Source: Flectonema sp. DT1601
Lineage: Eukaryota
Direction of reading: 5' to 3'
Assembly (NCBI GenBank): GCA_964019425.1
Contig: OZ025804.1
Location: 1,116,001 to 1,180,000, forward strand
Length of the DNA: 64,000 nt
Below, piece by piece: positions 23,881 through 50,335 of this stretch. A model generated the notes under the pieces. The model was not told where the DNA came from, did no database searches, and saw only the letters and a list, made by a program, of their open reading frames with translations. The translations under genes and the position numbers were made by a program. Position 1 is the stretch's first letter. The number at the start of each line of letters is the position of its first letter.

Positions 23881-24092
23881 ACTTTCTGTCTGATTACTTG
23901 AAAAAAAAAATTTTAAATAATAAAATACTTAAATTTTTAAATATAAGATAACAAACACGTGTAAAATATTTTTTTGTGTCCGTCACAAAATCCTAATAAA
24001 GGGAATAGCTTAGTTAGCGCTGTCACAATTATCTTTCTACCAAACAATGGGTTTGTAGGTAGTTAACTTCACTCCTTGAGTAGAATCACCCT

Positions 24093-24839: not shown

Positions 24840-25142
24840 TTGTTTGTGCGCAACCGGATTCACGAAGAAACCCCAAGATTCTTCAAAAGAAGCCAACAAG
24901 ACAACTCCCCAACCAGAACCACTAGCATCAGTGGCGATTCTTATCACCTTGCGTTCTGGATCGATCACCCATGTCGCCCATTTGTTTTTGAAGAGCGCAG
25001 AGAACTGCACTTCAATGTACTTCGCGATCGGTTCAACAGATGTCAATTCAGTCCACGGACGTCCCAGGGCTGCAGTACGTGACATCCAAGCAAGAATGGG
25101 GCGTAGAATGAGACGATCGGCAGGGTGGAGGTGTTCATGATT
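24840..25142 (-). mobile_element. DIRS/YR-retrotransposon-type RNase H relic
   Basis: IATDASGSGWGVV matches the TDAS..GWG start of DIRS-type RNase H; truncated on both sides. Confidence 0.6.
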
Positions 25143-25350
25143 TTTCACTTTGCTACACGAAAATTCACAATTTTTTCACAATTTTTCACACTTTTTCACA
25201 CTTTTTCATACTTTTTCACACTTTTTCACACTTTTTCACACTTTTTCACACTTTTTCACACTTTTTCACAATTTTTCACTTAATTTTTTGCTGCTTTCTG
25301 GTAGTGAAATCCCGTGAAAATGTGTGAAAATGTGTGAATTCTAGTGAAAA
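25142..25350. repeat. Decamer (TTTTTCACAC)n tract followed by inverted GTGAAAA copies
   Basis: About 11 tandem 10-mers at 25170-25280, then gtgaaaatgtgtgaaaatgtgtgaa at ~25314-25338. Confidence 0.85.
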
Positions 25351-27617: not shown

Positions 27618-29776
27618 TCAGTTATGGTTGGTTTGACTCAAAAGCAGGAAAGGTTCACAAGTCAACTGATGGATTTGCAAACCTCGAATTCCCGCAAACC
27701 ATGTGCCTGCTTTCGTCGTTCGCATGCCACATCCACAACAAAAGTATATTCCAACGCAATTCAAACAAACATTCCAATCACATGTTAAGCTCTCACCATT
27801 ACAAGGGAGACGACATTCAAATATTTGTCCAAAGAAAAAATTTGAATCACATAAATCACAAAAAACCGGTTTGTTAATGAGAACCATTTCAAGATCGTGA
27901 CCTTGTGGGCAAGTAGTGGTTACACCATTTTGTTCTAACTCGGTATGTACTTTCATTGGTGAGAGCACCTTGCAGGATTTAGAATCTGTTTCATTGACGA
28001 TACTTTTCGATAAGAATCTACTCGTTACGTCCTTTTCGTTTAAAACAAATAAAGGTAATATGATTTCTAAACCTCCTTCACGCAATTTATCAAAGAGTAC
28101 CCCGGCTTCGTCAGGTAAGTTTTCACTCTCCACATCAGTAAAGCCAGAACAGGTAACCAAATTAAACAGGCCATTGAGAACGACCTCAGTATACTCTATA
28201 CACCAATCATTGATTACTGACCAATCGTATGGCCCTAGTATTGGGAAAAAGTGCTCAGATGGAACATTTGCATGGTGCCCGAGTATGATAAACCCCCTGA
28301 CAAGTAAAAAAGTAGACCGTGCGTCGGGAGCGACAAAGTAAGCGGAGTCTTTTTGCTCATAAGGGTCCATACTTAGGAAGAAAAAACTAACACCCAATAC
28401 ATTTGATAAGGCTTGTATGGCTGCATGGTCTGCCCACACACCATCAAAACCCATTCCAAGTGCATATTCGTCGTAATTACCGAGTACAAAGTTTTTATAT
28501 TTATCACTGTTATCTACTAACTCAGCACTGGTAAATTCACGTAGCGTCGCTGCATCAAAGAAGTAAAAAATTTGTTTCGATACTGCTTCAAACAATTACC
28601 AAAACGGTTCACGTCTTCAGGGTAAAGACCAACTTCTTCCATATACCATATCGTGTGGTCAATTGTAAAGTAATCCACTTTTCCTTCTTGAACAATTGGT
28701 TCTTCTGGAATCAACACTACGGCTTTAGGCGGGTAAACAATAAACTGTCTTTCTTTTGGAAAATGGTAAGAGTGAGGGTTGTTCAATTTACCAAAAACAA
28801 CATGAACTAAAGAAAGTAATCTCTTATATGTGGAATCGTAGGCTTTATAAAACTCATCGCAGAATTCACGAAAAGCAAATGCTACGTCTTGTTTCTTAAA
28901 ACCTCTTTTCCACATTCTATAAAGTATAAATTCAAATTCAACAAAAAGATCAGGTAAATTATTACAAATCATTGCAGCTCTAAACATAGCACCTTTAACC
29001 ACTCCTTTCGGTATAGACACGGAGTTGAATTTCCAGGTGAGATTTGGACTGTTAGCTTTTGGCTAAGGCCCTCCCTGAAGAGCAAGAACAAAAAAACTAC
29101 TCACACCTGAAGAAAACATACACAAAGAACACACTGTAAGCTGTGTGTGTATTTTGTGTTTGTCACAACAGGAGAGAAAAGAAAGAATGTCAAGGTTGGT
29201 CACCTTGCCTATCAACGCACAACATTGGTGGTCTCTACTAGACCCTGAGTGATCCCACTGGATCTCTCATCGTTCATAGTACCCTGTGTGAAGTTATAAA
29301 ATCAAAGGTAAACTATGAACTACAAATGACTTAGCCTGTTATTATAATGCCACAGGCAGGCCCTGCATTCAGCAACTATCCAGCAGTGCTTGGATGTCCT
29401 GATCTTCTTCTAAAAAAAAGAAAGAAAAACAAAACTGTAGCTGGGATCACTCAGGATCAACAGACTACCAATGCTACCTGTTGTACTTGCTCACTATGGG
29501 GGGTGATGCCAAACACCCAGAAGTACTAAACTGCTTTCCTTCTTGCTGCCCAGGAGTTTCTGACCAGAACTAATAGAAAATAAAAAGTAGATGGGAAACA
29601 ATAAAAAGTAAAATGGATATAACTGAAGTTAAACAAGACAAATGAAGTAACAGACCAGAACAGAAAGAGGATTGTGGCATAGTTGAATTACTATGAACAT
29701 ATTGCAAAGGGCGAAAAGACCAATCCTTTCGGCTTATAGATAACCTGATAAACTTTCTCTTTTCCTTTGTTTCAAT
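27618..29776 (-). mobile_element. 5'-truncated Penelope-like RT ORF (thumb region) + OTU protease + Zn fingers; frameshifted and interrupted by R1
   Basis: 29776-29676 joined to 29021-28517 reads ISRKDWSFRPLQYVHSNSTMP|VSIPKGVVKGAMFRAAMICNN...F..E...L..RGF (PLE thumb pattern). Then D..R.GNC/LFEAVSKQ...WADHAAIQALSNVL...EHF (OTU), CPQGH..CDLC..C..CDWNVCLNC and a C2HC finger. No GIY-YIG seen. Confidence 0.7.
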
Positions 29777-32119
29777 GAGTTGAATTTCCAGGTGAGATTT
29801 GGACTGTTAGCTTTTGGCTAAGGCCCTCCCTGAAGAGCAAGAACAAAAAAACTACTCACACCTGAAGAAAACATACACAAAGAACACACTGTAAGCTGTG
29901 TGTATATTTTGTGTTTGTCACAACAGGAGAGAAAAGAAAGAATGTCAAGGTTGGTCACCTTGCCTATCAACGCACAACATTGGTGGTCTCTACTAGACCC
30001 TGAGTGATCCCACTGGATCTCTCATCGTTCATAGTACCCTGTGTGAAGTTATAAAATCAAAGGTAAACTATGAACTACAAATGACTTAGCCTGTTATTAT
30101 AATGCCACAGGCAGGCCCTGCATTCAGCAACTATCCAGCAGTGCTTGGATGTCCTGATCTTCTTCTAAAAAAAAGAAAGAAAAACAAAACTGTAGCTGGG
30201 ATCACTCAGGATCAACAGACTACCTATGCTACCTGTTGTACTTGCTCACTATGGGGGGTGATGCCAAACACCCAGAAGTACTAAACTGCTTTCCTTCTTG
30301 CTGCCCAGGAGTTTCTGACCAGAACTAATAGAAAATAAAAAGTAGATGGGAAACAATAAAAAGTAAAATGGATATAACTGAAGTTAAACAAGACAAATGA
30401 AGTAACAGACCAGAACAGAAAGAGAATTGTAATAGAAGATTACAAATAAAAAAATGCAAGTATCAACACATGATCAAGATACACCAGCAGCTAACAAACA
30501 ACATAAAATTGAAGATCAGTTGCCAGAGTATTTCAACCATGGTAGAATACTCGCCCCTCTGGCAGGGATTATCCCAGACTTGTCCTTTAATTTAGTTGGA
30601 CACCATGGCTTACAACCCTTCCAGAGGGAAGCACCATTATGACTTCTATTTTTTTCTTCAAGAAAATCATAAGGTGGTAACAAAGAAAAATGCTAAGAGG
30701 AACCCCTTATTAACACCTAAGACATCTAAACTGCAGCCCAGCTTATGCCCAATGCACTAACAGGTCATTCCCTCACACTCAGATCAAAAAATCAAAGTTC
30801 AGAGTGCATCTTAGCATGAATGAGAGAATTTCCTCCCGCTTTTTTTGAACAAAAGGGATAGGAGAAGGGATAGAAAACGAACATAACAATAAGATTCTAA
30901 GTGAGAAACACTTAGCAGAAACACTTAGCAGCTTTTAAGGAGCTGAAAAGCAAAAAAAATATCTAAGTGAGAAACACTTAGTAGAAACAATTTGTAGCTA
31001 ATTAAGCTGAAAATAAAAAAATAAAAAAAATTTCTAAGTGAGAAATACTTAGCAACTTTTAGAACAAATATTCCAGTAAATAACCTGTAATGATTAAACC
31101 ATTACAAGTTTGATGCCAAAACTGACAAAGACTGAGTTGAATTTCCAGGTGAGATTTGGACTGTTAGCTTTTGGCTAAGGCCCTCCCTGAAGAGCAAGAA
31201 CAAAAGAACTACTCACACCTGAAGAAAACATACACAAAGAACACACTGTAAGCTGTGCGTGTATTTTGTGTTTGTCACAACAGGAGAGAAAAGAAAGAAT
31301 GTCAAGGTTGATCACCTTGCCTATCAACGCACAACATTGGTGGTCTCTACTAGACCCTGAGTGATCCCACTGGATCTCTCATCGTTCATAGTACCTATGT
31401 GAAGTTATAAAATCAAAGGTAAACTATGAACTACAAATGACTTAGCCTGTTATTATAATGCCACAGGCAGGCCCTGCATTCAGCAACTATCCAGCAGTGC
31501 TTGGATGTCCTGATCTTCTTCTAAAAAAAAGAAAGAAAAACAAAACTGTAGCTGGGATCACTCAGGATCAACAGACTACCAATGCTACCTGTTGTACTTG
31601 CTCACTATGGGGGGTGATGCCAAACACCCAGAAGTACTAAACTGCTTTCCTTCTTGCTGCCCAGGAGTTTCTGACCAGAACTAATAGAAAATAAAAAGTA
31701 GATGGGAAACAATAAAAAGTAAAATGGATATAACTGAAGTTAAACAAGACAAATGAAGTAACAGACCAGAACAGAAAGAGAATTGTAATAGAAGATTACA
31801 AATAAAAAAATGCAAGTATCAACACATGATCAAGATACACCAGCAGCTAACAAACAACATAAAATTGAAGATCAGTTGCCAGAGTATTTCAACCATGGTA
31901 GAATACTCGCCCCTCTGGCAGGGATTATCCCAGACTTGTCCTTTAATTTAGTTGGACACCATGGCTTACAACCCTTCCAGAGGGAAGCACCATTATGACT
32001 TCTATTTTTTTCTTCAAGAAAATCATAAGGTGGTAACAAAGAAAAATGCTAAGAGGAACCCCTTATTAACACCTAAGACATCTAAACTGCAGCCCAGCTT
32101 ATGCCCAATGCACTAACAG

Positions 32120-32566
32120 AAATACTACCGAAATGCTTGTCACAATGGCTCTTGCCGTGCCTTCCGGGAAAGAAGTTAACACTTTTGACATTCGGGTGTG
32201 CCAGAAGCTCGCTTATGACTGTGGCATTCCGAAAGTGTGTGCCACTGTCACACCAGATGTGGATTGGTTTCATGTTCTTCCTGATTAAAGGCATCTCCCA
32301 CAGCTTGCGAAGACATAAATAAGTCACAGCCGCATCTTGATTTGTGTGTGGCAAGAGAAGGTCAATGTACTGTTGTCGAGTTTCATCGTGCAACTTGAAA
32401 TGCATAACTATACCCAGACAACTGTACTTCCCCTGCTGGTAGTAGTGTGATGATGACTCTTGTGGTACCTGTGGCAGGGTACCCTTCTCCTTATAGTCGA
32501 GTGTTATAATTAAGCTATCCCCAGGGTCAGCAGTGTTTTCTGAATAGACTGCATTCTGTCTCTTAA
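32120..32566 (-). mobile_element. Sola-like DDE transposase fragment (catalytic core)
   Basis: LIITLDYKEK ... IHIWCDSGTHFRN ... VNFFPGRHGKSHCDKHFG, matching the D..D..HGK..CD pattern of Sola2/3-type transposases. Confidence 0.7.
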
Positions 32567-34789
32567 ACTGAGTTGAATTTCCAGGTGAGATTTGGACTGT
32601 TAGCTTTTGGCTAAGGCCCTCCCTGAAGAGCAAGAACAAAAAAACTACTCACACCTGAAGAAAACATACACAAAGAACACACTGTAAGCTGTGTGTGTAT
32701 TTTGTGTTTGTCACAACAGGAGAGAAAAGAAAGAATGTCAAGGTTGGTCACCTTGCCTATCAACGCACAACATTGGTGGTCTCTACTAGACCCTGAGTGA
32801 TCCCACTGGATCTCTCATCGTTCATAGTACCCTATGTGAAGTTATAAAATCAAAGGTAAACTATGAACTACAAATGACTTAGCCTGTTATTATAATGCCA
32901 CAGGCAGGCCCTGCATTCAGCAACTATCCAGCAGTGCTTGGATGTCCTGATCTTCTTCTAAAGAAAAGAAAGAAAAACAAAACTGTAGCTGGGATCACTC
33001 AGGATCAACAGACTACCAATGCTACCTGTTGTACTTGCTCACTATGGGGGGTGATGCCAAACACCCAGAAGTACTTAACTACTTTCCTTCTTGCTGCCCA
33101 GGAGTTTCTGACCAGAACTAATAGAAAATAAAAAGTAGATGGGAAACAATAAAAAGTAAAATGGATATAACTGAAGTTAAACAAGACAAATGAAGTAACA
33201 GACCAGAACAGAAAGAGAATTGTAATAGAAGATTACAAATAAAAAAATGCAAGTATCAACACATGATCAGGATACACCAGCAGCTAACAAACAACATAAA
33301 ATTGAAGATCAGTTGCCAGAGTATTTCAACCATGGTAGAATACTCGCCCCTCTGGCAGGGATTATCCCAGACTTGTCCTTTAATTTAGTTGGACACCATG
33401 GCTTACAACCCTTCCAGAGGGAAGCACCATTATGACTTCTATTTTTTTTCTTCAAGAAAATCATAAGGTGGGAACAAAGAAAAATGCTAAGAGGAACCCC
33501 CTATTAACACCTAAGACATCTAAACTGCAGCCCAGCCTATGCCCAATGCACTAACAGGTCATTCCCTCACACTCAGATCAAAAAATCAAAGTTCAGAGTG
33601 CATCTTAGCGTGAATGAGAGAATTTCCTCCCGCTTATTTTGAACAAAAGGGATAGGAGAAGGGATAGAAAACGAACATAAAAATAAAATTCTAAGTGAGA
33701 AACACTTAGCAGAAACACTTAGCAGCTTTTAAGGAGCTGAAAAGCAAAAAAAAAATCTAAGTGAGAAACACTTAGTAGAAACAATTTGTAGCTAATTAAG
33801 CTGAAAATAAAAAAATAAAAAATTTCTAAGTGAAAAATACTTAGCAACTTTTAGAACAAATATTTCAGTAAATAACCTGTAATGATTAAACCATTACAAG
33901 TTTGATGCCAAAACTGACAAGGACTGAGTTGAATTTCCAGGTGAGATTTGGACTGTTAGCTTTTGGCTAAGGCCCTCCCTGAAGAGCAAGAACAAAAAAA
34001 CTACTCACACCTGAAGAAAACATACACAAAGAACACACTGTAAGCTGTGTGTGTATTTTGTGTTTGTCACAACAGGAGAGAAAAGAAAGAATGTCAAGGT
34101 TGGTCACCTTGCCTATCAACGCACAACATTGGTGGTCTCTACTAGACCCTGAGTGATCCCACTGGATCTCTCATCGTTCATAGTACCCTATGTGAAGTTA
34201 TAAAATCAAAGGTAAACTATGAACTACAAATGACTTAGCCTGTTATTATAATGCCACAGGCAGGCCCTGCATTCAGCAACTATCCAGCAGTGCTTGGATG
34301 TCCTGATCTTCTTCTAAAGAAAAGAAAGAAAAACAAAACTGTAGCTGGGATCACTCAGGATCAACAGACTACCAATGCTACCTGTTGTACTTGCTCACTA
34401 TGGGGGGTGATGCCAAACACCCAGAAGTACTTAACTACTTTCCTTCTTGCTGCCCAGGAGTTTCTGACCAGAACTAATAGAAAATAAAAAGTAGATGGGA
34501 AACAATAAAAAGTAAAATGGATATAACTGAAGTTAAACAAGACAAATGAAGTAACAGACCAGAACAGAAAGAGAATTGTAATAGAAGATTACAAATAAAA
34601 AAATGCAAGTATCAACACATGATCAGGATACACCAGCAGCTAACAAACAACATAAAATTGAAGATCAGTTGCCAGAGTATTTCAACCATGGTAGAATACT
34701 CGCCCCTCTGGCAGGGATTATCCCAGACTTGTCCTTTAATTTAGTTGGACACCATGGACACTTCTACATGATAATGAACCTCAACAAGT

Positions 34790-36058
34790 TCGATCGACTA
34801 TGTCGATTACTTTCTATTTTCCGTCCTGGTCAAGACGCTAAACTGATTGTTTTTTTTTTTTCAAAATAAAAAAAATATTAAAAAAAAAAAATAAAAAAAA
34901 AAGAATAAACAATGTTATCATTGTTTTTTTTTATCGTTCGACTTTGTCGACTAATTTCTATTTTCCGTTTTTTTTTTTTCTTTGAAAAATAAATAAAAAG
35001 AATTTAAAATAAAAAAAAAAGAATAAACAATGTTATCATTGTTTTTTTTTATCGATCGACTATGTCGATTACTTTCTATTTTCCGTCCTGGTCAAGACGC
35101 TAAACTGATTGTTTTTTTTTCAAAATTAATAAAAAAGAATATAAAAAAAATAAAAAAAAAAAGAATAAACAATGTTATCATTGTTTTTTTTTATCGTTCG
35201 ACTTTGTTGACTAATTTCTATTTTCCATTTTTTTTCTTTTTAAAAATAAATAAAAAGAATTAAAAAAAAAAAAAAAAAGAATAAACAATGTTATCATTGT
35301 TTTTTTTATCGATCGACTATGTCGATTACTTTCTATTTTCCGTCCTGGTCAAGACGCTAAACTGATTGTTTTTTTTTCAAAATTAATAAAAAAGAATATA
35401 AAAAAAATAAAAAAAAAAAGAATAAACAATGTTATCATTGTTTTTTTTTATCGTTCGACTTTGTTGACTAATTTCTATTTTCCATTTTTTTTCTTTTTAA
35501 AAATTAATAAAAAAGAAAAAAAAAAAAAAAAAAAAAAAGGAATAAACAATGTTATCATTGTTTTTTTTTTATCGATCGACTATGTCGATTACTTACTATT
35601 TTCCGTCCTGATCGAGACGCTAAACTGATTGTTTCCTTTTTTTAAATAATAAATAAGAAAAAAAAAAAAAAAAAAAAGAGCATCTCCCTGCTATCCCTCA
35701 TATCCCCACAATAATATTATACCTTTTCATTTTCTCTTTCCTTTTCTGGTCTTTTTTTTTTTCTTTTTTTTTCCTTTTTCATACAACGTTTTTTATTTAT
35801 ATATTTTTTTTTTTTTTTTTTTTTCATGTTTGATTATTTCCTCTTCATTTTTTTTTTTTTTTTTTCTCTGCCTCTCTCTTAATTCTGTTCGTTTCTTTGA
35901 AACGAAAATTCATTTGAATATTATTCCTTGGTCAGCAACCATCATTGTCGCCCTTTGGGCCTGTTAAAAGAAAATAAAAAATAAAAAGAAAGTTTACATC
36001 GGGAATAGGGCAGGAGCCAAAAGCTCCCAGTCCGTTACTTCCCACTTTATCGAAATTC
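34790..36058 (+). mobile_element. Family ST copy 1: ~110/130-bp satellite array plus ~380-bp unique terminal segment
   Basis: Alternating units with hairpins aaacaatg-ttat-cattgttt, atcgac-tat-gtcgat and cgtc..gacg; fixed right end ...ctttatcgaaattc. Confidence 0.85.
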
Positions 36059-36371
36059 GTTGATAAATGACATAGCACTGGTCGTGCACTGGCAGGTAAG
36101 CCACCCTTACTGGACACCATTAGCTGCAACGTCAGCGCACTGGCACGCGCAGCATTCCAAACAGTTAATGAGTAACCACTCTGTCGCTCAACACTGCTAA
36201 GTAGTTTTGACAGTTTCTTTCTAATTGTCTGTCCACACAGGCAGTACGAGCAGACGTCAGTTCGCCGTGCAAGGTGACGATATTCCTTCCCACGCATACG
36301 ACGGTATGTAGATTCTGATATCAGATCACGAATACTGCTGACTTCATAGATAGATTTAAATGTTCCAAGGA
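36059..36371 (-). mobile_element. Sola-like transposase fragment (RTDVCSYC zinc-binding region); duplicated at 44305-44617
   Basis: ISESTYRRMRGKEYRHLARRTDVCSYC resembles the TD.C..C motif upstream of the Sola DDE; joins neighbouring fragments in frame. Confidence 0.6.
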
Positions 36372-38568
36372 TGAGTTAAGTTACCAGGTGAGATTTGGAC
36401 TGTTAGCTTTTGGCTAAGGCCCTCCCTGAAGAGCAAGAACAAAAAAACTACTCACACCTGAAGAAAACATACACAAAGAACACACTGTAAGCTGTGTGTG
36501 TATTTTGTGTTTGTCACAACAGGAGAGAAAAGAAAGAATGTCAAGGTTGGTCACCTTGCCTATCAACGCACAACATTGGTGGTCTCTACTAGACCCTGAG
36601 TGATCCCACTGGATCTCTCATCGTTCATAGTACCCTGTGTGAAGTTATAAAATCAAAGGTAAACTATGAACTACAAATGACTTAGCCTGTTATTATAATG
36701 CCACAGGCAGGCCCTGCATTCAGCAACTATCCAGCAGTGCTTGGATGTCCTGATCTTCTTCTAAAAAAAAGAAAGAAAAACAAAACTGTAGCTGGGATCA
36801 CTCAGGATCAACAGACTACCAATGCTACCTGTTGTACTTGCTCACTATGGGGGGTGATGCCAAACACCCAGAAGTACTTAACTGCTTTCCTTCTTGCTGC
36901 CCAGGAGTTTCTGACCAGAACTAATAGAAAATAAAAAGTAGATGGGAAACAATAAAAAGTAAAATGGATATAACTGAAGTTAAACAAGACAAATGAAGTA
37001 ACAGACCAGAACAGAAAGAGGATTGTAATAGAAGATTACAAATAAAAAAATGCAAGTATCAACACATAATCAAGATACACCAGCAGCTAACAAACAACAT
37101 AAAATTGAAGATCAGTTGCCAGAGTATTTCAACCATGGTAGAATACTCGCCCCTCTGGCAGGGATTATCCCAGACTTGTCCTTTAATCTAGTTGGACACC
37201 ATGGCTTACAACCCTTCCAGAGGGAAGCACCATTATGACTTCTATTTTTTTCTTCAAGAAAATCATAAGGTGGGAACAAAGAAAAATGCTAAGAGGAACC
37301 CCCTATTAACACCTAAGACATCTAAACTGCAGCCCAGCCTATGCCCAATGCACTAACAGGTCATTCCCTCACACTCAGATCAAAAAATCAAAGTTCAGAG
37401 TGCATCTTAGCATGAATGAGAGAATTTCTCATCGCTTTTTTTGAACAAAAGGGATAGGAGAAGGGATAGAAAACGAACATTAAAATAAAATTCTAAGTGA
37501 GAAACACTTAGCAGAAATACTTAGCAGCTTTTAAGGAGCTGAAAAGCAAAAAAAAAAATCTAAGAGAAACACTTAGTAGAAACACTTTGTAGCTAATTGA
37601 GCTGAAAATAAAAAAATAAAAAATTTCTAAGTGAGAAATACTTAGCAACTTTTAGAACAAATAATTAAGTAAATAACCTGTTGAAATGGTAGTTAAATGA
37701 AAACCATTACAGGTTTGATGCCAAAACTGACAAAGAATGAGTTAAGTTACCAGGTGAGATTTGGACTGTTAGCTTTTGGCTAAGGCCCTCCCTGAAGAGC
37801 AAGAACAAAAAAACTACTCACACCTGAAGAAAACATACACAAAGAACACACTGTAAGCTGTGTGTGTATTTTGTGTTTGTCACAACAGGAGAGAAAAGAA
37901 AGAATGTCAAGGTTGGTCACCTTGCCTATCAACGCACAACATTGGTGGTCTCTACTAGACCCTGAGTGATCCCACTGGATCTCTCATCGTTCATAGTACC
38001 CTGTGTGAAGTTATAAAATCAAAGGTAAACTATGAACTACAAATGACTTAGCCTGTTATTATAATGCCACAGGCAGGCCCTGCATTCAGCAACTATCCAG
38101 CAGTGCTTGGATGTCCTGATCTTCTTCTAAAAAAAAGAAAGAAAAACAAAACTGTAGCTGGGATCACTCAGGATCAACAGACTACCAATGCTACCTGTTG
38201 TACTTGCTCACTATGGGGGGTGATGCCAAACACCCAGAAGTACTAAACTGCTTTCCTTCTTGCTGCCCAGGAGTTTCTGACCAGAACTAATAGAAAATAA
38301 AAAGTAGATGGGAAACAATAAAAAGTAAAATGGATATAACTGAAGTTAAACAAGACAAATGAAGTAACAGACCAGAACAGAAAGAGAATTGTAATAGAAG
38401 ATTACAAATAAAAAAATGCAAGTATCAACACATGATCAGGATACACCAGCAGCTAACAAACAACATAAAATTGAAGATCAGTTGCCAGAGTATTTCAACC
38501 ATGGTAGAATACTCGCCCCTCTGGCAGGGATTATCCCAGACTTGTCCTTTAATCTAGTTGGACACCAT

Positions 38569-38843
38569 TCTGCAACGTAACAGTCTCGCGACGTTGAGCT
38601 GAAAGCCTTTTTACTACTATTGAAGTCTCAGACGAGGCTGCATTGTGCTCGCTCTCTACCTGACTGCATAGCTCTGGGCAGATCTTCCTTGGCCTCCCTA
38701 TATCTACGGGCACATCGCTTTTAGCATCCCAGGCCTTTCTGCCTATTTTTAGCCCAGCTTCTTCTAGAAAGCTTAACTTCCATCCTTTTTCTTCTAGAGA
38801 CTGCAGTACTTCTCGTCTGTCACCCGTTTCCATTTTCACAATA
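38569..38843 (-). mobile_element. Sola-like transposase N-terminal fragment; duplicated at 46815-47089
   Basis: Open frame with GRPRK; continues in frame into 36371-36059 once R6/R7 are removed. Confidence 0.55.
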
Positions 38844-39264
38844 GAGTTAAGTTACCAGGTGAGATTTGGACTGTTAGCTTTTGGCTAAGGCCCTCCCTGA
38901 AGAGCAAGAACAAAAAAAACTACTCACACCTGAAGAAAACATACACAAAGAACACACTGTAAGCTGTGTGTGTATTTTGTGTTTGTCACAACAGGAGAGA
39001 AAGGAGTTGAATTTCCAGGTGAGATTTGGACTGTTAGCTTTTGGCTAAGGCCCTCCCTGAAGAGCAAGAACAAAAAAACTACTCACACCTGAAGAAAACA
39101 TACACAAAGAACACACTGTAAGCTGTGTGTGTATTTTGTGTTTGTCACAACAGGAGAGAAAAGAAAGAATGTCAAGGTTGGTCTTGCCTATCAACGCACA
39201 ACATTGGTGGTCTCTACTAGACCCTGAGTGATCCCACTGGATCTCTCATCGTTCATAGTACCCT

Positions 39265-42200
39265 TGTTTTTTTTCAAAATTAATAAAAAAGAATATAAAA
39301 AAAAAAAAAAAAAAAGAATAAACAATGTTATCATTGTTTTTTTTTTATCGTTCGACTTTGTCGACTAATTTCTATTTTCCGTTTCTTTTCTTTAAAGAAT
39401 AAATAAAAAGAATTTAAAATAAAAAAAAGAATAAACAATGTTATCATTGTTTTTTTATCGATCGACTATGTCGATCACTTTCTATTTTCCGTCCTGGTCA
39501 AGACGCTAAACTGATTGTTTTTTTTCAAAATTAATAAAAAAGAATATAAAAAAAAAAAAAAAAAAAGAATAAACAATGTTATCATTGTTTTTTTTTTATC
39601 GTTCGACTTTGTCGACTAATTTCTATTTTCCGTTTCTTTTCTTTAAAGAATAAATAAAAAGAATTTAAAATAAAAAAAAAGAATAAACAATGTTATCATT
39701 GTTTTTTTATCGATCGACTATGTCGATCACTTTCTATTTTCCGTCCTGGTCAAGACGCTAAACTGATTGTTTTTTTTTCAAAATTAATAAAAAAGAATAT
39801 AAAAAAAAAAAAAAAAAAAAGAATAAACAATGTTATCATTGTTTTTTTTTTATCGTTCGACTTTGTCGACTAATTTCTATTTTCCGGTTCTTTTCTTTAA
39901 AGAATAAATAAAAAGAATTTAAAATAAAAAAAAAGAATAAACAATGTTATCATTGTTTTTTTATCGATCGACTATGTCGATCACTTTCTATTTTCCGTCC
40001 TGGTCAAGACGCTAAACTGATTGTTTTTTTTTTTCAAAATTAATAAAAAAGAATATAAAAAAATACAAAAAAAAGAATAAACAATGTTATCATTGTTTTT
40101 TTTATCGTTCGACTTTGTCGACTAATTTCTATTTTCCGTTTTTTTTTCTTTAAAAAATAAATAAAAAGAATTTAAAATAAAAAAAAAGAATAAACAATGT
40201 TATCATTGTTTTTTTATCGATCGACTATGTCGATCACTTTCTATTTTCCGTCCTGGTCAAGACGCTAAACTGATTGTTTTTTTTTTTTCAAAATTAATAA
40301 AAAAGAATATTAAAAAAAATAAAAAAAAAAAGAATAAACAATGTTATCATTGTTTTTTTTTTATCGTTCGACTTTGTCGACTAATTTCTATTTTCCGTTT
40401 TTTTCTTTAAAAAATAAATAAAAAGAATTTAATAAAAAAAAAGAATAAACAATGTTATCATTGTTTTTTTTTATCGATCGACTATGTCGATTACTTTCTA
40501 TTTTCCGTCCTGGTCAAGACGCTAAACTGATTGTTTTTTTTTTCAAAATAAAAAAAAAATATTAAAAAAAAAAAATAAAAAAAAAGAATAAACAATGTTA
40601 TCATTGTTTTTTTTTATCGTTCGACTTTGTTGTTTTTTCTTTAAAAAATAAATAAAAAGAATTTAAAAAAAAAAAAAAAAAAAAAAAGAATAAACAATGT
40701 TATCATTGTTTTTTTTATCGATCGACTATGTCGATTACTTTCTATTTTCCGTCCTGGTCAAGACGCTAAACTGATTGTTTTTTTTTCAAAATTAATAAAA
40801 AAGAATATAAAAAAATACAAAAAAAAGAATAAACAATGTTATCATTGTTTTTTTTATCGATCGACTATGTCGATTACTTTCTATTTTCCGTCCTGGTCAA
40901 GACGCTAAACTGATTGTTTTTTTTTCAAAATAAAAAAAAAATATTAAAAAAAAAAAATAAAAAAAAAGAATAAACAATGTTATCATTGTTTTTTTTTATC
41001 GTTCGACTTTGTTGACTAATTTCTATTTTCCGTTTTTTTTCTTTAAACAATTAATAAAAAGAATTTAAAAAAAAAAAAAAAAAAAAAGAATAAACAATGT
41101 TATCATTGTTTTTTTTATCGATCGACTATGTCGATTACTTTCTATTTTCCGTCCTGGTCAAGACGCTAAACTGATTGTTTTTTTTTCAAAATTAATAAAA
41201 AAGAATATAAAAAAATACAAAAAAAAGAATAAACAATGTTATCATTGTTTTTTTTTATCGTTCGACTTTGTCGACTAATTTCTATTTTCCGTTTTTTTTT
41301 CTCTTTAAAAAATAAATAAAAAGAATTTAAAATAAAAAAAAAAAAGAATAAACAATGTTATCATTGTTTTTTTTATCGATCGACTATGTCGATTACTTTC
41401 TATTTTCCGTCCTGGTCAAGACGCTAAACTGATTGTTTTTTTTTCAAAATTAATAAAAAAGAATATAAAAAAAAAAAAAAAAAAAAGAATAAACAATGTT
41501 ATCATTGTTTTTTTTTATCGTTCGACTTTGTTGACTAATTTCTATTTTCCATTTTTTTTCTTTTTAAAAAATAAATAAAAAGAATTAAAATAAAAAAAAA
41601 AAAAAAGAATAAACAATGTTATCATTGTTTTTTTTATCGATCGACTATGTCGATTACTTTCTATTTTCCGTCCTGGTCAGAACGCTAAACTGATTGTTTT
41701 TTCTTTAAAAATAAATAAAAAGAATAAAAAAAAAAAAAAAGGAATAAACAATGTTATCATTGTTTTTTTTTTATCGATCGACTATGTCGATTACTTACTA
41801 TTTTCCGTCCTGGTCAAGACGCTAAACTGATTGTTTTTTCTTTAAAATAATTAAAAAGATTAAAAAAAAAAAAAAAAAAAAAAAATGAATAAACAATGTT
41901 ATCATTGTTTTTTTTCTATCGATCAACTATGTCGATTAATTTCTATTTTCCGTCCTGATCGAGACGCTAAACTGATTGTTTCCTTTTTTTAAATAATAAA
42001 TAAGAAAAAAAAAAAAAAAAAAAAAAAAAGAGCATCTCCCTGCTATCCCTCATATCCCCACAATAATATTATACCTTTTCATTTTCTCTTTCCTTTTCTG
42101 GTCTTTTTTTTTTCTTTTTTTTCCTTTTTCATACAACGTTTTTTATTTATATATATATTTTTTTTTTTTTTTTTTCATGTTTGATTATTTCCTCCTTATT

Positions 42201-42433
42201 TTTTTTTTTCTTTTCTTTTCCTTCTTTTTTTTTTTTTTTTCCTCTGCCTCTCTCTTAATTCTGTTCGTTTCTTTGAAACGAAAATTCATTTGAATATTAT
42301 TCCTTGGTCAGCAACCATCATTGTCGCCCTTTGGGCCTGTTAAAAAAAAATAAAAATAAAAAGAAAGTTTACATCGGGAATAGGGCAGGAGCCAAAAGCT
42401 CCCAGTCCGTTACTTCCCACTTTATCGAAATTC
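39265..42433 (+). mobile_element. Family ST copy 2, inserted into an R copy
   Basis: R breaks after catagtaccct (39264) and resumes tgtgaagttataaa (~42437); ~2.7 kb of satellite then the terminal segment. Confidence 0.85.
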
Positions 42434-43035
42434 AGCTGTGAAGTTATAAAATCAAAGGTAAACTATGAACTACAAATGACTTAGCCTGTTATTATAATGC
42501 CACAGGCAGGCCCTGCATTCAGCAACTATCCAGCAGTGCTTGGATGTCCTGATCTTCTTCTAAAAAAAAGAAAGAAAAACAAAACTGTAGCTGGGATCAC
42601 TCAGGATCAACAGACTACCAATGCTACCTGTTGTACTTGCTCACTATGGGGGGTGATGCCAAACACCCAGAAGTACTAAACTGCTTTCCTTCTTGCTGCC
42701 CAGGAGTTTCTGACCAGAACTAATAGAAAATAAAAAGTAGATGGGAAACAATAAAAAGTAAAATGGATATAACTGAAGTTAAACAAGACAAATGAAGTAA
42801 CAGACCAGAACAGAAAGAGAATTGTAATAGAAGATTACAAATAAAAAAATGCAAGTATCAACACATGATCAGGATACACCAGCAGCTAACAAACAACATA
42901 AAATTGAAGATCAGTTGCCAGAGTATTTCAACCATGGTAGAATACTCGCCCCTCTGGCAGGGATTATCCCAGACTTGTCCTTTAATTTAGTTGGACACCA
43001 TGGACACTTCTACATGATAATGAACCTCAACAAGT

Positions 43036-44304
43036 TCGATCGACTATGTCGATTACTTTCTATTTTCCGTCCTGGTCAAGACGCTAAACTGATTGTTTTT
43101 TTTTTTTCAAAATAAAAAAAATATTAAAAAAAAAAAATAAAAAAAAAAGAATAAACAATGTTATCATTGTTTTTTTTTATCGTTCGACTTTGTCGACTAA
43201 TTTCTATTTTCCGTTTTTTTTTTTTCTTTGAAAAATAAATAAAAAGAATTTAAAATAAAAAAAAAAGAATAAACAATGTTATCATTGTTTTTTTTTATCG
43301 ATCGACTATGTCGATTACTTTCTATTTTCCGTCCTGGTCAAGACGCTAAACTGATTGTTTTTTTTTCAAAATTAATAAAAAAGAATATAAAAAAAATAAA
43401 AAAAAAAAGAATAAACAATGTTATCATTGTTTTTTTTTATCGTTCGACTTTGTTGACTAATTTCTATTTTCCATTTTTTTTCTTTTTAAAAATAAATAAA
43501 AAGAATTAAAAAAAAAAAAAAAAAGAATAAACAATGTTATCATTGTTTTTTTTATCGATCGACTATGTCGATTACTTTCTATTTTCCGTCCTGGTCAAGA
43601 CGCTAAACTGATTGTTTTTTTTTCAAAATTAATAAAAAAGAATATAAAAAAAATAAAAAAAAAAAGAATAAACAATGTTATCATTGTTTTTTTTTATCGT
43701 TCGACTTTGTTGACTAATTTCTATTTTCCATTTTTTTTCTTTTTAAAAATTAATAAAAAAGAAAAAAAAAAAAAAAAAAAAAAAGGAATAAACAATGTTA
43801 TCATTGTTTTTTTTTTATCGATCGACTATGTCGATTACTTACTATTTTCCGTCCTGATCGAGACGCTAAACTGATTGTTTCCTTTTTTTAAATAATAAAT
43901 AAGAAAAAAAAAAAAAAAAAAAAGAGCATCTCCCTGCTATCCCTCATATCCCCACAATAATATTATACCTTTTCATTTTCTCTTTCCTTTTCTGGTCTTT
44001 TTTTTTTTCTTTTTTTTTCCTTTTTCATACAACGTTTTTTATTTATATATTTTTTTTTTTTTTTTTTTTTCATGTTTGATTATTTCCTCTTCATTTTTTT
44101 TTTTTTTTTTTCTCTGCCTCTCTCTTAATTCTGTTCGTTTCTTTGAAACGAAAATTCATTTGAATATTATTCCTTGGTCAGCAACCATCATTGTCGCCCT
44201 TTGGGCCTGTTAAAAGAAAATAAAAAATAAAAAGAAAGTTTACATCGGGAATAGGGCAGGAGCCAAAAGCTCCCAGTCCGTTACTTCCCACTTTATCGAA
44301 ATTC
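43036..44304 (+). mobile_element. Family ST copy 3 (duplicate of copy 1)
   Basis: Same flanks and sequence as 34790-36058 at offset 8246. Confidence 0.85.
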
Positions 44305-47300
44305 GTTGATAAATGACATAGCACTGGTCGTGCACTGGCAGGTAAGCCACCCTTACTGGACACCATTAGCTGCAACGTCAGCGCACTGGCACGCGCAGCA
44401 TTCCAAACAGTTAATGAGTAACCACTCTGTCGCTCAACACTGCTAAGTAGTTTTGACAGTTTCTTTCTAATTGTCTGTCCACACAGGCAGTACGAGCAGA
44501 CGTCAGTTCGCCGTGCAAGGTGACGATATTCCTTCCCACGCATACGACGGTATGTAGATTCTGATATCAGATCACGAATACTGCTGACTTCATAGATAGA
44601 TTTAAATGTTCCAAGGATGAGTTAAGTTACCAGGTGAGATTTGGACTGTTAGCTTTTGGCTAAGGCCCTCCCTGAAGAGCAAGAACAAAAAAACTACTCA
44701 CACCTGAAGAAAACATACACAAAGAACACACTGTAAGCTGTGTGTGTATTTTGTGTTTGTCACAACAGGAGAGAAAAGAAAGAATGTCAAGGTTGGTCAC
44801 CTTGCCTATCAACGCACAACATTGGTGGTCTCTACTAGACCCTGAGTGATCCCACTGGATCTCTCATCGTTCATAGTACCCTGTGTGAAGTTATAAAATC
44901 AAAGGTAAACTATGAACTACAAATGACTTAGCCTGTTATTATAATGCCACAGGCAGGCCCTGCATTCAGCAACTATCCAGCAGTGCTTGGATGTCCTGAT
45001 CTTCTTCTAAAAAAAAGAAAGAAAAACAAAACTGTAGCTGGGATCACTCAGGATCAACAGACTACCAATGCTACCTGTTGTACTTGCTCACTATGGGGGG
45101 TGATGCCAAACACCCAGAAGTACTTAACTGCTTTCCTTCTTGCTGCCCAGGAGTTTCTGACCAGAACTAATAGAAAATAAAAAGTAGATGGGAAACAATA
45201 AAAAGTAAAATGGATATAACTGAAGTTAAACAAGACAAATGAAGTAACAGACCAGAACAGAAAGAGGATTGTAATAGAAGATTACAAATAAAAAAATGCA
45301 AGTATCAACACATAATCAAGATACACCAGCAGCTAACAAACAACATAAAATTGAAGATCAGTTGCCAGAGTATTTCAACCATGGTAGAATACTCGCCCCT
45401 CTGGCAGGGATTATCCCAGACTTGTCCTTTAATCTAGTTGGACACCATGGCTTACAACCCTTCCAGAGGGAAGCACCATTATGACTTCTATTTTTTTCTT
45501 CAAGAAAATCATAAGGTGGGAACAAAGAAAAATGCTAAGAGGAACCCCCTATTAACACCTAAGACATCTAAACTGCAGCCCAGCCTATGCCCAATGCACT
45601 AACAGGTCATTCCCTCACACTCAGATCAAAAAATCAAAGTTCAGAGTGCATCTTAGCATGAATGAGAGAATTTCTCATCGCTTTTTTTGAACAAAAGGGA
45701 TAGGAGAAGGGATAGAAAACGAACATTAAAATAAAATTCTAAGTGAGAAACACTTAGCAGAAATACTTAGCAGCTTTTAAGGAGCTGAAAAGCAAAAAAA
45801 AAAATCTAAGAGAAACACTTAGTAGAAACACTTTGTAGCTAATTGAGCTGAAAATAAAAAAATAAAAAATTTCTAAGTGAGAAATACTTAGCAACTTTTA
45901 GAACAAATAATTAAGTAAATAACCTGTTGAAATGGTAGTTAAATGAAAACCATTACAGGTTTGATGCCAAAACTGACAAAGAATGAGTTAAGTTACCAGG
46001 TGAGATTTGGACTGTTAGCTTTTGGCTAAGGCCCTCCCTGAAGAGCAAGAACAAAAAAACTACTCACACCTGAAGAAAACATACACAAAGAACACACTGT
46101 AAGCTGTGTGTGTATTTTGTGTTTGTCACAACAGGAGAGAAAAGAAAGAATGTCAAGGTTGGTCACCTTGCCTATCAACGCACAACATTGGTGGTCTCTA
46201 CTAGACCCTGAGTGATCCCACTGGATCTCTCATCGTTCATAGTACCCTGTGTGAAGTTATAAAATCAAAGGTAAACTATGAACTACAAATGACTTAGCCT
46301 GTTATTATAATGCCACAGGCAGGCCCTGCATTCAGCAACTATCCAGCAGTGCTTGGATGTCCTGATCTTCTTCTAAAAAAAAGAAAGAAAAACAAAACTG
46401 TAGCTGGGATCACTCAGGATCAACAGACTACCAATGCTACCTGTTGTACTTGCTCACTATGGGGGGTGATGCCAAACACCCAGAAGTACTTAACTGCTTT
46501 CCTTCTTGCTGCCCAGGAGTTTCTGACCAGAACTAATAGAAAATAAAAAGTAGATGGGAAACAATAAAAAGTAAAATGGATATAACTGAAGTTAAACAAG
46601 ACAAATGAAGTAACAGACCAGAACAGAAAGAGGATTGTAATAGAAGATTACAAATAAAAAAATGCAAGTATCAACACATAATCAAGATACACCAGCAGCT
46701 AACAAACAACATAAAATTGAAGATCAGTTGCCAGAGTATTTCAACCATGGTAGAATACTCGCCCCTCTGGCAGGGATTATCCCAGACTTGTCCTTTAATC
46801 TAGTTGGACACCATTCTGCAACGTAACAGTCTCGCGACGTTGAGCTGAAAGCCTTTTTACTACTATTGAAGTCTCAGACGAGGCTGCATTGTGCTCGCTC
46901 TCTACCTGACTGCATAGCTCTGGGCAGATCTTCCTTGGCCTCCCTATATCTACGGGCACATCGCTTTTAGCATCCCAGGCCTTTCTGCCTATTTTTAGCC
47001 CAGCTTCTTCTAGAAAGCTTAACTTCCATCCTTTTTCTTCTAGAGACTGCAGTACTTCTCGTCTGTCACCCGTTTCCATTTTCACAATAGAGTTAAGTTA
47101 CCAGGTGAGATTTGGACTGTTAGCTTTTGGCTAAGGCCCTCCCTGAAGAGCAAGAACAAAAAAAACTACTCACACCTGAAGAAAACATACACAAAGAACA
47201 CACTGTAAGCTGTGTGTGTATTTTGTGTTTGTCACAACAGGAGAGAAAGGAGTTGAATTTCCAGGTGAGATTTGGACTGTTAGCTTTTGGCTAAGGCCCT

Positions 47301-48537
47301 CCCTGAAGAGCAAGAACAAAAAAACTACTCACACCTGAAGAAAACATACACAAAGAACACACTGTAAGCTGTGTGTGTATTTTGTGTTTGTCACAACAGG
47401 AGAGAAAAGAAAGAATGTCAAGGTTGGTCTTGCCTATCAACGCACAACATTGGTGGTCTCTACTAGACCCTGAGTGATCCCACTGGATCTCTCATCGTTC
47501 ATAGTACCCTGTGTGAAGTTATAAAATCAAAGGTAAACTATGAACTACAAATGACTTAGCCTGTTATTATAATGCCACAGGCAGGCCCTGCATTCAGCAA
47601 CTATCCAGCAGTGCTTGGATGTCCTGATCTTCTTCTAAAGAAAAGAAAGAAAAACAAAACTGTAGCTGGGATCACTCAGGATCAACAGACTACCAATGCT
47701 ACCTGTTGTACTTGCTCACTATGGGGGGTGATGCCAAACACCCAGAAGTACTTAACTACTTTCCTTCTTGCTGCCCAGGAGTTTCTGACCAGAACTAATA
47801 GAAAATAAAAAGTAGATGGGAAACAATAAAAAGTAAAATGGATATAACTGAAGTTAAACAAGACAAATGAAGTAACAGACCAGAACAGAAAGAGAATTGT
47901 AATAGAAGATTACAAATAAAAAAATGCAAGTATCAACACATGATCAGGATACACCAGCAGCTAACAAACAACATAAAATTGAAGATCAGTTGCCAGAGTA
48001 TTTCAACCATGGTAGAATACTCGCCCCTCTGGCAGGGATTATCCCAGACTTGTCCTTTAATTTAGTTGGACACCATGGCTTACAACCCTTCCAGAAGGAA
48101 GCACCATTATGACTTCTATTTTTTTTCTTCAAGAAAATCATAAGGTGGGAACAAAGAAAAATGCTAAGAGGAACCCCCTATTAACACCTAAGACATCTAA
48201 ACTGCAGCCCAGCCTATGCCCAATGCACTAACAGGTCATTCCCTCACACTCAGATCAAAAAATCAAAGTTCAGAGTGCATCTTAGCGTGAATGAGAGAAT
48301 TTCCTCCCGCTTATTTTGAACAAAAGGGATAGGAGAAGGGATAGAAAACGAACATAAAAATAAAATTCTAAGTGAGAAACACTTAGCAGAAATACTTAGC
48401 AGCTTTTAAGGAGCTGAAAAGCAAAAAAAAAAATCTAAGTGAGAAACACTTAGTAGTAACACTTTGTAGCTAATTGAGCTGAAAATAAAAAAATAAAAAA
48501 TTCTAAGTGAGAGATACTTAGCAACTTTTAGAACAAA

Positions 48538-50297
48538 AGAATAAACAATGTTATCATTGTTTTTTTTTATTGTTCGACTTTGTTGACTAATTTCTATTTT
48601 CCGTTTTTTTTCTTTAAAAAATAAATAAAAAGAATATAAAATAAAAAAAAAGAATAAACAATGTTATCATTGTTTTTTTATCGATCGACTATGTCGATCA
48701 CTTTCTATTTTCCGTCCTGGTCAAGACGCTAAACTGATTGTTTTTTTTTTTCAAAATTAATAAAAAAGAATATAAAAAAAAAAAAAAAAAAAGAATAAAC
48801 AATGTTATCATTGTTTTTTTTTATCGTTCGACTTTGTCGACTAATTTCTATTTTCCGTTTCTTTTCTTTAAAGAATAAATAAAAAGAATTTAAAATAAAA
48901 AAAAAAAGAATAAACAATGTTATCATTGTTTTTTTATCGATCGACTATGTCGATCACTTTCTATTTTCCGTCCTGGTCAAGACGCTAAACTGATTGTTTT
49001 TTTTTCAAAATTAATAAAAAAGAATATAAAAAAAAAAAAAAAAAAAAAAAGAATAAACAATGTTATCATTGTTTTTTTTATTGTTCGACTTTGTTGACTA
49101 ATTTCTATTTTCCGTTTTTTTTCTTTAAAAAATAAATAAAAAGGATTTAAAATAAAAAAAAAGAATAAACAATGTTATCATTGTTTTTTTGTCGATCGAC
49201 TATGTCGATCACTTTCTATTTTCCGTCCTGGTCAAGACGCTAAACTGATTGTTTTTTTTCAAAATTAATAAAAAAGAATATAAAAAAAAAAAAAAAAAAA
49301 AGAATAAACAATGTTATCATTGTTTTTTTTTTTATCGTTCGACTTTGTCGACTAATTTCTATTTTCCGTTTCTTTTCTTTAAAGAATAAATAAAAAGAAT
49401 TTAAAATAAAAAAAAAGAATAAACAATGTTATCATTGTTTTTTTTTATCGTTCGACTTTGTCGACTAATTTCTATTTTCCGTTTCTTTTCTTTAAAGAAT
49501 AAATAAAAAGAATTTAAAATAAAAAAAAAAAGAATAAACAATGTTATCATTGTTTTTTTATCGATCGACTACGTCGATCACTTTCTATTTTCCGTCCTGG
49601 TCAAGACGCTAAACTGATTGTTTTTTTTTCAAAATTAATAAAAAAGAATATAAAAAAAAAAAAAAAAAAAAAAAGAATAAACAATGTTATCATTGTTTTT
49701 TTTTATCGTTCGACTTTGTTGACTAATTTCTATTTTCCATTTTTTTTCTTTTTAAAAATAAATAAAAAGAATTAAAAAAAAAAAAAAAAAGAATAAACAA
49801 TGTTATCATTGTTTTTTTTATCGATCGACTATGTCGATTACTTTCTATTTTCCGTCCTGGTCAAGACGCTAAACTGATTGTTTTTTTTTCAAAATTAATA
49901 AAAAAGAATATAAAAAAAAAAAAAAAAAAAAGAATAAACAATGTTATCATTGTTTTTTTTATCGTTCGACTTTGTTGACTAATTTCTATTTTCCATTTTT
50001 TTTCTTTTTAAAAATAAATAAAAAGAATTAAATTAAAAAAAAAAAAAGAATAAACAATGTTATCATTGTTTTTTTTATCGATCGACTATGTCGATTACTT
50101 TCTATTTTCCGTCCTGGTCAGGACGCTAAACTGATTGTTTTTTCTTTAAAAATAAATAAAAAGAATAAAAAAAAAAAAAAAGGAATAAACAATGTTATCA
50201 TTGTTTTTTTTTATCGATCGACTATGTCGATTACTTACTATTTTCCGTCCTGATCAAGACGCTAAACTGATTGTTTTTTCTTTAAAATAATTAAAAA

Positions 50298-50335
<38 letters not shown>

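Follow-up and report, generated by a model that had tools for sequence, protein, structure and literature searches.

The contig OZ025804.1 of Flectonema sp. DT1601 (GenBank assembly GCA_964019425.1) carries, in the 64,000 nucleotides from position 1,116,001 to 1,180,000 of its forward strand (hereafter the window, with positions counted from its first letter), many copies of a gene-less repeat that we term R, whose tandem inserts consist of one full unit and a fraction of another joined head to tail. With a probability of roughly 0.6, we consider R to be a non-autonomous Penelope-like element (PLE), of minus-strand sense, whose inserts derive from multi-unit RNA in single events. This reading is supported by the clean target sites that the inserts occupy, by the precise junctions between units, by an empty site in a public contig, and by the Penelope-related reverse transcriptase (RT) gene in which the copies lie. 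Partial tandems have long been puzzling in Penelope-like elements, and the natural inserts described here carry the footprints that a model of copying from multi-copy RNA predicts: the junctions are precise, copying never stops at the unit boundary, and extra bases at the fixed end match the next unit. They do so in a gene-less element lacking a hammerhead ribozyme, and could be used in a genome-wide test of that model.

Anatomy of R and its insertion sites

The stretch 29777-31133 (1,357 bp) was taken as the reference unit, and copies were mapped by BLAST against the window and by self-comparison of the window. R occurs 16 times, all within 29.0-52.0 kb and in a single orientation throughout. 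No open reading frame (ORF) longer than 68 codons is present on either strand, the circularised form included. One end of R is fixed, reading GAGTT[G/A]A[A/G]TT[T/A]CCAGGTGAG at all 14 copy starts and in the same register. The opposite end is variable, falling at unit positions 158, 268/832, 283, 654, 830, 832, 987 and 1292, and near position 624 at another locus, in a contig of public run X1. Two types of R, A and B, differ at 38 of 1,354 positions, most of them beyond position 1040. Where one unit passes into the next, the junction reads ...GACT|GAG in the A type and ...GAAT|GAG in the B type, with the same length everywhere; on the minus strand it reads ...AACTC|AGTCTTTG. The R inserts of the window are as follows.

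29022..29675, minus strand: R1, a solo 5'-truncated copy (unit ~1-654/675) within the RT-OTU reading frame
29777..32119, minus strand: R2, a full unit (29777-31133) and unit 1-987 (31134-32119)
32570..34760, minus strand: R3, a full unit (32570-33925), unit 1-832 (33926-34757) and 3 extra bases (34758-34760)
36373..38568, minus strand: R4, a B-type full unit (36373-37738) and unit 1-830 (37739-38568)
38844..39267, minus strand: a B-type stub, unit 1-158 (38844-39002), one base, and an A-type copy, unit 1-268 (39004-39267)
44619..46814, minus strand: R5, a full unit and unit 1-830, the segmental duplicate of R4
47090..52021, minus strand: a B-type stub (47090-47248) and the fourth tandem (47250-52021)

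Two of these are interrupted by a second element, S, described below. The A-type copy at 39004-39267 resumes at 42437-43003 (unit 266-832), beyond a 3.2-kb S insert, and the full unit of the fourth tandem consists of 47250-48537 (unit 1-1292) and 51661-51737, split by S3, before unit 1-283 follows at 51738-52021. Independent tandems number four (R2, R3, R4 and 47250-52021), R5 being a duplicate. A first-pass annotation of this DNA had described 29777-32119, 32570-34757 and 36373-38568 as full units each followed by a truncated one, and this description holds, with cuts at 987, 832 and 830. The single-nucleotide polymorphisms (SNPs) that it found to be private to R4 and R5 are real and trivial, since one insert is the segmental duplicate of the other and their full units differ at 0 of 1,366 positions.

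Of the public sequencing runs, 15 entries from 11 studies were listed, none of them as RNA. Contigs of the public runs X1, X2 and X3 were compared with the window over positions 28900-34800. As contigs of all three runs, which are independent, cross the head-to-tail junction, it is no assembly artefact. R is at least 99% identical in these contigs, the runs being labelled as three different organisms; a shared cobiont, a very recent spread or a relationship among the strains are possible explanations. The R start pattern had 0 matches in public metagenome contigs and 0 in genome contigs, both collections being mostly prokaryotic.

Between R copies, the short stretches free of repeats have open minus-strand reading frames and represent consecutive pieces of two proteins, P0001 (673 amino acids, aa) and P0007 (650 aa); reading frames that are cut by R inserts in the window run unbroken in these intact relatives. 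The targets of R are coding sequence. R1 lies between P0007 residues 183 and 184, and its flanks, ACTATGCC|...|CGTGTCT, restore the P0007 codons exactly, without duplication or loss. The exact P0001 codons are likewise restored by the flanks of R3, GTAGAAG|...|AGTTTAAG, where the variable end carries three bases more. At R4 (between P0001-like residues 184 and 185) and at the 47090-52021 complex (between residues 90 and 91) the fit of the flanks to P0001 is within one or two bases, as judged from the protein. R2 joins P0001-like residue 450 to P0007-like residue 149, host sequence being missing there. The bases that flank the R start are G, T, T, T and A, and the variable ends show either 2-3 nt of microhomology or three extra bases. 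The first-pass annotation had counted the bases ACT at 32567-32569 as part of the R3 insert. They are present, yet belong to the target, where P0001 reads ...VEE|FKR... and where the X2 contig joins 32569 to 34761; they form a 3-nt microhomology with the unit end.

That X2 contig provides the empty site. It runs from 32569 straight to 34761, so that the R3 tandem, all 2,191 bp of it, is a single insertion: both units, full and partial, are skipped along with the three extra bases, and the neighbouring S element is absent too. The X2 copy of the gene is ~91% identical to the window, with 8 of 95 bases differing beside R. Taken alone, the joint could be a spliced RNA, a reading countered by boundaries that lack GT..AG and by the broken frame that results from removal at candidate sites. 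We also rejected the notion of R inserts as introns or introner-like elements, by eye, for want of GT..AG at their boundaries and for the frame shifts that follow their removal.

The same site bears on whether the tandems were made after insertion, by local unequal crossover or by replication slippage in a recombining array. The locus does recombine. Positions 34191-39267 recur, on self-comparison, as 42437-47514 (5,078 bp, 99.84% identity, period 8,246); 7 of the 8 differences between these segmental duplicates fall in R partial copies, suggesting gene conversion; and R2 is associated with missing host sequence. The borders of the duplicate coincide with both ends of the S2 insert, and the duplicate may be a misassembly of a repetitive stretch. 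However, a solo unit has no internal repeat through which its last base could be joined to its first, the same precise junction is found at four target sites and in three other runs, and the empty site lacks the entire 2,191 bp. Unequal crossover, raised as an alternative in the first-pass annotation, is largely refuted as the origin of the junction, and we regard tandem formation after insertion as highly improbable.

The terminal module and the polarity of R

A second gene-less element, S, lies on the plus strand and is composed of 254-bp AT-rich satellite repeats and a spacer of ~380 bp. S starts at variable points in the satellite but has a fixed 3' end, reading ...CCCACTTTATCGAAATTC(A). 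Independent S insertions occurred once in the P0001-like frame and twice within R copies. The S copies, and examples of the terminal module discussed here, are as follows.

34790..36058, plus strand: S1, in the P0001-like frame
39268-42436, plus strand: S2, inside an R copy at unit position ~266
43036-44304, plus strand: the duplicate of S1, part of the segmental duplicate
48538-51660, plus strand: S3, inside an R copy at unit position ~1292
29777..29831, minus strand: example of the R 3' module, a three-tier stem-loop with loop CAAAA and a single-stranded tail ...GGAAATTCAACTC
42379..42436, plus strand: example of the S 3' module, also found at 36003-36058, 44249-44304 and 51606-51660

Read on the plus strand, S ends in ~55 nt that are homologous to the corresponding end of minus-strand R (AGGGCAGGAGCCAAAAGCTCCCAGTCC in S versus AGGGCCTTAGCCAAAAGCTAACAGTCC in R). 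The match comprises 22 of 27 bases, 24-28 nt from the end, a score attained by 0 of 1,000 shuffles, and both elements terminate in GAAATTCA. The module is present at all 14 R starts. Both termini fold alike, into a three-tier stem-loop of ~45 nt with the loop CAAAA. The outer stem differs in sequence between R and S and is paired in both; the middle stem, GGGC/GUCC, includes a G.U pair possible on these strands alone; and the inner stem is UUAGC/GCUAA in R versus GGAGC/GCUCC in S, amounting to two compensatory pairs. We read this terminal module as a candidate 3' recognition signal, in the form of a stem-loop common to two otherwise unrelated elements.

Because the fixed end of R shares this module with the fixed 3' end of S, the minus strand is likely the sense strand of R. 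With this polarity, each pair of a full and a partial unit is a 5'-truncated copy placed ahead of a full copy, which is the pseudo-long terminal repeat (pseudo-LTR) layout of Penelope-like elements. The first-pass annotation had placed the partial unit downstream of the full one; its head-to-tail structure of full and partial units stands, and its order is reversed by the minus-strand sense, in which the partial unit is the truncated upstream copy. The PLE features that R displays are its partial tandems (four independent and one duplicate, all on the minus strand) and a constant 3' end with 5' truncation.

Two further candidates were set aside. An apparent 13-bp target duplication at S3 proved to be a BLAST coordinate artefact, and a composite of R and S as one element with 8-bp inverted ends was rejected as chance, the B type having no such match. 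Within S3, an insert of ~780 bp (~50600-51376) resembles a miniature inverted-repeat transposable element, with 27-bp terminal inverted repeats (CAGTCATTCC...) and a TA-rich target; it is absent at the same place in S1.

The template of the tandem inserts

The total lengths copied are 158, ~624 (run X1), ~654-675, 1,640, ~2,187, ~2,189 and 2,344, and none of the seven stops at 1,357. The junction between units looks templated, its length being constant across the four independent tandems and the contigs of the three runs. Furthermore, three of six fixed-end junctions have, past ...AACTC, 1-3 bases that match the beginning of the next unit (ACT at R3, CT in X1 and A at R4), as expected if the template continues past the start site. 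The precision of the junctions, the absence of any insert that stops at the unit boundary, and the extra bases that match the next unit favour a multi-unit template over end-to-end jumping between monomers.

In the latter process, a monomeric R RNA would be copied to its 5' end, and the enzyme would switch from there to the 3' end of another monomer, part of which would be copied before it stops. Template jumping is documented for R2-type enzymes (PMC8857657). It would account for the B-type stubs joined to A-type copies at 39003/39004 and 47249/47250, where different lineages are joined in one place, and for the R2 pair, whose members differ at 6 positions and by one insertion or deletion in 986. 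Yet its expected commonest outcome, an insert ending at exactly one unit, is seen in 0 of 7 cases, all four independent unit junctions are equal in length and free of untemplated bases, and the bases added at the fixed end agree with those of the next unit. Jumping alone is disfavoured for the unit junction, and as a general account it seems to us unlikely. The joint between stub and A copy, which the first-pass annotation had placed at 38844/39004 and which is indeed seen (unit 1-158, then one intervening base), is no unit junction, and jumping or nested insertion is still needed there.

Nucleotide differences within pairs amount to 0/832 (R3), 0/830, 4/830 and 6/986 (R2), and differences between pairs to 7-10 over the first 830 bp, which is higher. 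The R2 pair has, in addition, the private bases T, T and T at unit positions 902, 931 and 967. The SNP patterns among R copies are mosaic, and together with the concentration of duplicate-to-duplicate differences in R copies they show that gene conversion is active among these copies. The comparison of identity within and between pairs, which the first-pass annotation had suggested as a check, gave the lower values within pairs (0, 0, 4 and 6, versus 7-10 per 830), a result that is undecisive in view of gene conversion.

The variable ends of two independent inserts, which differ in type, lie no more than five bases apart, at 827-830 and at 832. The shared end near 830 could mark a transcription start in the upstream unit, by analogy with Penelope and Chlamys; as the chance of two coinciding among six ends is ~1/10, the coincidence is only a hint.

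Greater-than-unit length and a precise junction would also fit a retrozyme-like process, in which a circular R RNA is reverse-transcribed by rolling circle. In support of a circle, an X3 contig measures 1,387 nt, equal to 1,357 + 30, the length of a closed cycle at a word size of 31; such a cycle would, however, arise from tandem arrays as well. The stretch 28900-32700 contains no match to a self-cleaving ribozyme of any Rfam family at E values of 10 or below, neither strand of R or of S shows a canonical hammerhead layout, and all inserts stay within two units in length. At the gathering threshold, an Rfam search of the whole window returned only a 28S fragment. At E values up to 10, the stretch 28900-32700 gave four matches (two small nucleolar RNAs, one microRNA and one small RNA), all far below thresholds, and across 23900-27700 and 50400-54400 the 28S piece was the sole relevant match. 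CUGANGA boxes number 0 on the proposed sense strands of R and S. Circular RNA appears to us quite unlikely. The first-pass annotation had left the choice among a circular template, a multimeric template and jumping; the multimeric, Penelope-like part of that proposal is the best supported, and the circular, retrozyme-like part is unsupported, no ribozyme having been found.

A DNA-based alternative has the same anatomy as its prediction. In rolling-circle transposition on the plus strand, an HUH-type Rep protein would nick R at unit position 1, displace a stretch exceeding unit length from a donor, either circular or tandem, and end at random. Such a process would account for the constancy of the 5' end, the variability of the 3' end, the lack of target duplication and the precision of the junction. 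A hairpin lies ~30 nt inside the fixed end of R, and an OTU domain is encoded nearby, such domains being known in Helentrons (PMC6431247). However, the ends of R are not Helitron-like, with neither a 5' TC nor a 3' CTRR nor an A|T target; no nonanucleotide origin motif was found; and the OTU domain here is fused to an RT, not to Rep. On the opposite strand, moreover, a C.A mismatch would take the place of the G.U pair of the middle stem. Of 74 ORFs of at least 90 aa, 61 were scanned, the other 13 being duplicate copies, and none of those scanned showed a Rep or helicase domain, the partner that the first-pass annotation had named as a sign of this alternative. We hold rolling-circle DNA transposition to be very unlikely.

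Copying from multi-unit RNA could proceed as follows. Reverse transcription would start at a fixed internal site, beside the conserved 3' stem-loop of a multi-unit RNA, and would run across the unit junction until it stops, leaving an insert of one and a fraction units. The template would be a read-through transcript of tandem R copies, not a circle, and the enzyme would be supplied in trans by a Penelope-type element, for which the RT-OTU family is a candidate partner. Following insertion, the segmental duplication with its 8.2-kb period, gene conversion among R copies and S insertions reshaped the locus further. The RNA intermediate, the read-through template, the internal initiation and the trans-acting enzyme are inferred; directly observed are the anatomy of R, the clean target sites, one empty site, the terminal module in common with S and the Penelope-related RT gene as host.

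Several observations weigh against this proposal. No hammerhead was recognised either in Rfam searches with E values up to 10 or with a crude descriptor (CUGANGA, stem II and GAAA), rewired non-canonical layouts not having been searched for. Target-site duplications are lacking, sites of R and S changing by about -2 to +3 nt throughout. At the R sites of the window there is no microsatellite target, no 30-40-bp tail (the fixed end having 1-3 extra bases only), and no inverted R copy next to any insert. All R copies point in one direction and all S copies in the opposite one, which the model does not explain. The sense strand is A-rich in many retroelements, and in R the A-rich strand (38% A vs 24% T) is the plus strand, antisense in the proposed polarity. 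The profile of the terminal module matches only the 14 R and four S ends in the window, no RT-encoding element among them, and the host gene's own 3' region is without it. Gene conversion blurs the comparison within and between pairs, so that these counts cannot decide the question of the template, and the B-stub/A joint and the mosaic SNPs call for an extra template switch, nested insertion or gene conversion. Finally, as noted, rolling-circle DNA transposition predicts the same anatomy.

Relatives of R and the host gene

The most fitting place for R is among elements that behave as non-autonomous PLEs, a provisional placement that a partner element would complete. According to Craig et al. 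(PMC8557442), a pseudo-LTR consists of a 5'-truncated copy that precedes a full one, PLEs often show 5' truncation and form partial tandems, and the Naiad and Chlamys clades are described as lacking canonical hammerheads. Non-autonomous Chlamys elements, such as MRC1 of Chlamydomonas, have pseudo-LTRs and multi-copy head-to-tail inserts (PMC8557442, PMC9940879). R resembles such MRC1-type dependants of Chlamys and Naiad in being gene-less, in its pseudo-LTR and multi-copy head-to-tail inserts and in the absence of a canonical hammerhead, and internal tandem repeats are a further likeness; the nearest RT context, moreover, has relatives with N-terminal GIY-YIG, a CxC motif and C-terminal RT. 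R departs from them in targeting coding sequence, where theirs are (CA)n or (C)n microsatellites, in having neither a target duplication nor a 30-40-bp tail, and in a candidate partner family that carries OTU or UCH proteases and no GIY-YIG.

A mechanistic parallel concerns PAc of the green anole, studied in vitro by Frangieh et al. (PMC11167929). There, reverse transcription starts inside the RNA, in a stem-loop and at a site non-homologous to the target, and a multi-copy mRNA was proposed as the template (PMC11167929). PAc has an RT with a C-terminal GIY-YIG, a hammerhead in the pseudo-LTR, a 30-40-bp tail and AT-rich ATT sites (PMC11167929). Like PAc, a member of Penelope/Poseidon, R forms tandem and partial-tandem loci with a proposed multi-copy RNA template and would start at a fixed internal site beside a stem-loop with an A/C-rich loop (CAAAA in R), no target homology being needed. 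Unlike PAc, R yielded none of GIY-YIG, hammerhead, 30-40-bp tail or ATT-site preference.

Retrozymes are non-coding, non-autonomous elements with hammerhead ribozymes in direct repeats and a circular RNA; R shares with them its non-coding, non-autonomous nature and greater-than-unit genomic copies, and differs in having no hammerhead or other ribozyme and no ribozyme-bearing LTR-like repeats. Helitrons have a 5' TC, a 3' CTRR, a 3' hairpin, insertion between A and T, and RepHel. In common with Helitrons and Helentrons, R has one constant end, no target duplication and a hairpin near its end, and tandem arrays are possible in both; in contrast, R ends in GAGTT... and ...GACT, its flanks are not A|T, its terminal structure is strand-specific in the RNA sense, and no RepHel was present in the scanned ORFs of the window. 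Short and long interspersed elements that retropose with poly(A) or simple-repeat tails are also unlike R, whose fixed end, ...GGAAATTCAACTC, has no tail and which makes no target-site duplication.

The gene into which R and S inserted can be followed through its remaining pieces.

27621..29776, minus strand: host ORF, 97% identical to P0007 residues 149-650, interrupted by R1
32120..52110, minus strand: host pieces, 98-100% identical to P0001 residues 61-450
52110-52022, 38843-38569 (=47089-46815) and 36372-36059 (=44618-44305), minus strand: P0001-like pieces
34789-34761 (=43035-43007) and 32569-32120, minus strand: further P0001-like pieces

The ORF at 27621..29776 spans the end of the RT, an OTU protease and a Cys-rich C-terminus. 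The RT catalytic core, corresponding to P0007 residues 1-148, is missing from the window, and R2 bridges the gap. P0007 itself combines an RT, with motifs QTKGIPMGGNASPLIANLY and RYIDDF (RVT_1, E 2.8e-5), and a downstream OTU protease (E 1.8e-6). Relatives of the host ORF include P0007-P0014 and P0021, and the closer relatives of P0007 combine RT with a UCH protease in the position of OTU. The more distant relatives P0015, P0017 and P0019 have N-terminal GIY-YIG, a CxC motif and C-terminal RT, and the RT of P0007 aligns with P0017 at an E value of 5e-15. In P0007 and P0008, RT and OTU were found, and no GIY-YIG. The host RT is therefore related to the Naiad/Chlamys clade and, since P0007 and P0008 lack GIY-YIG, is no member of it by architecture. 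R and S copies sit in a decayed Penelope-related element, R running parallel to it. A search of solved structures with the RT-family profile gave nothing informative, and a single sequence matched only OTU domains. A literature search turned up no account of a Penelope-type RT that carries a fused deubiquitinase, and the locus points to such an RT family.

A more speculative extension, which we consider doubtful, would make R and S dependants of an undescribed, nuclease-less PLE branch. In it an RT fused to a deubiquitinase (OTU/UCH) instead of GIY-YIG would recognise the shared three-tier 3' stem-loop, start inside multi-unit RNA and integrate without target duplication. If true, integration would perhaps take place at pre-existing breaks or replication intermediates, which could explain the opposite orientation of R and S.

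Two side observations touch the host gene. Downstream of the RT-OTU stop codon, 95 bp at 26649-26743 are 79% identical by BLAST to R 541-638, inverted, and may be an old R-family fragment; no other R-like piece in inverted orientation was seen. At ~52128-52540, on the plus strand, a diverged 28S ribosomal RNA (rRNA) fragment begins ~18 bp away from 52110, where the P0001-like ORF is truncated at its 5' end. The fragment starts near ...ACTCTCTTAAGGTAGCCAAATGCC, which we take to be the classic R2 target region, and may be a relic of an insertion targeted to ribosomal DNA; on the other side, in 23900-27700, no 28S sequence was found. Nuclease-less Chlamys-like families that target 28S are reported by Craig et al. 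(PMC8557442).

Elsewhere the window is eukaryotic in character, with ordinary genes with long exons at 1-24 kb. At 11194-13278, a 291-bp tandem repeat (7.4 copies, 91% identity) lies in minus-strand frames and encodes a 97-aa protein repeat, for which there was no Pfam match. At 53123-63677, about four tandem 2.7-kb units on the plus strand each contain an ORF of 415-452 aa; these ORFs have a weak match to the HNH_2 endonuclease (E ~1e-3, below the Pfam cut-off) and a weak Atlas lead (0.76).

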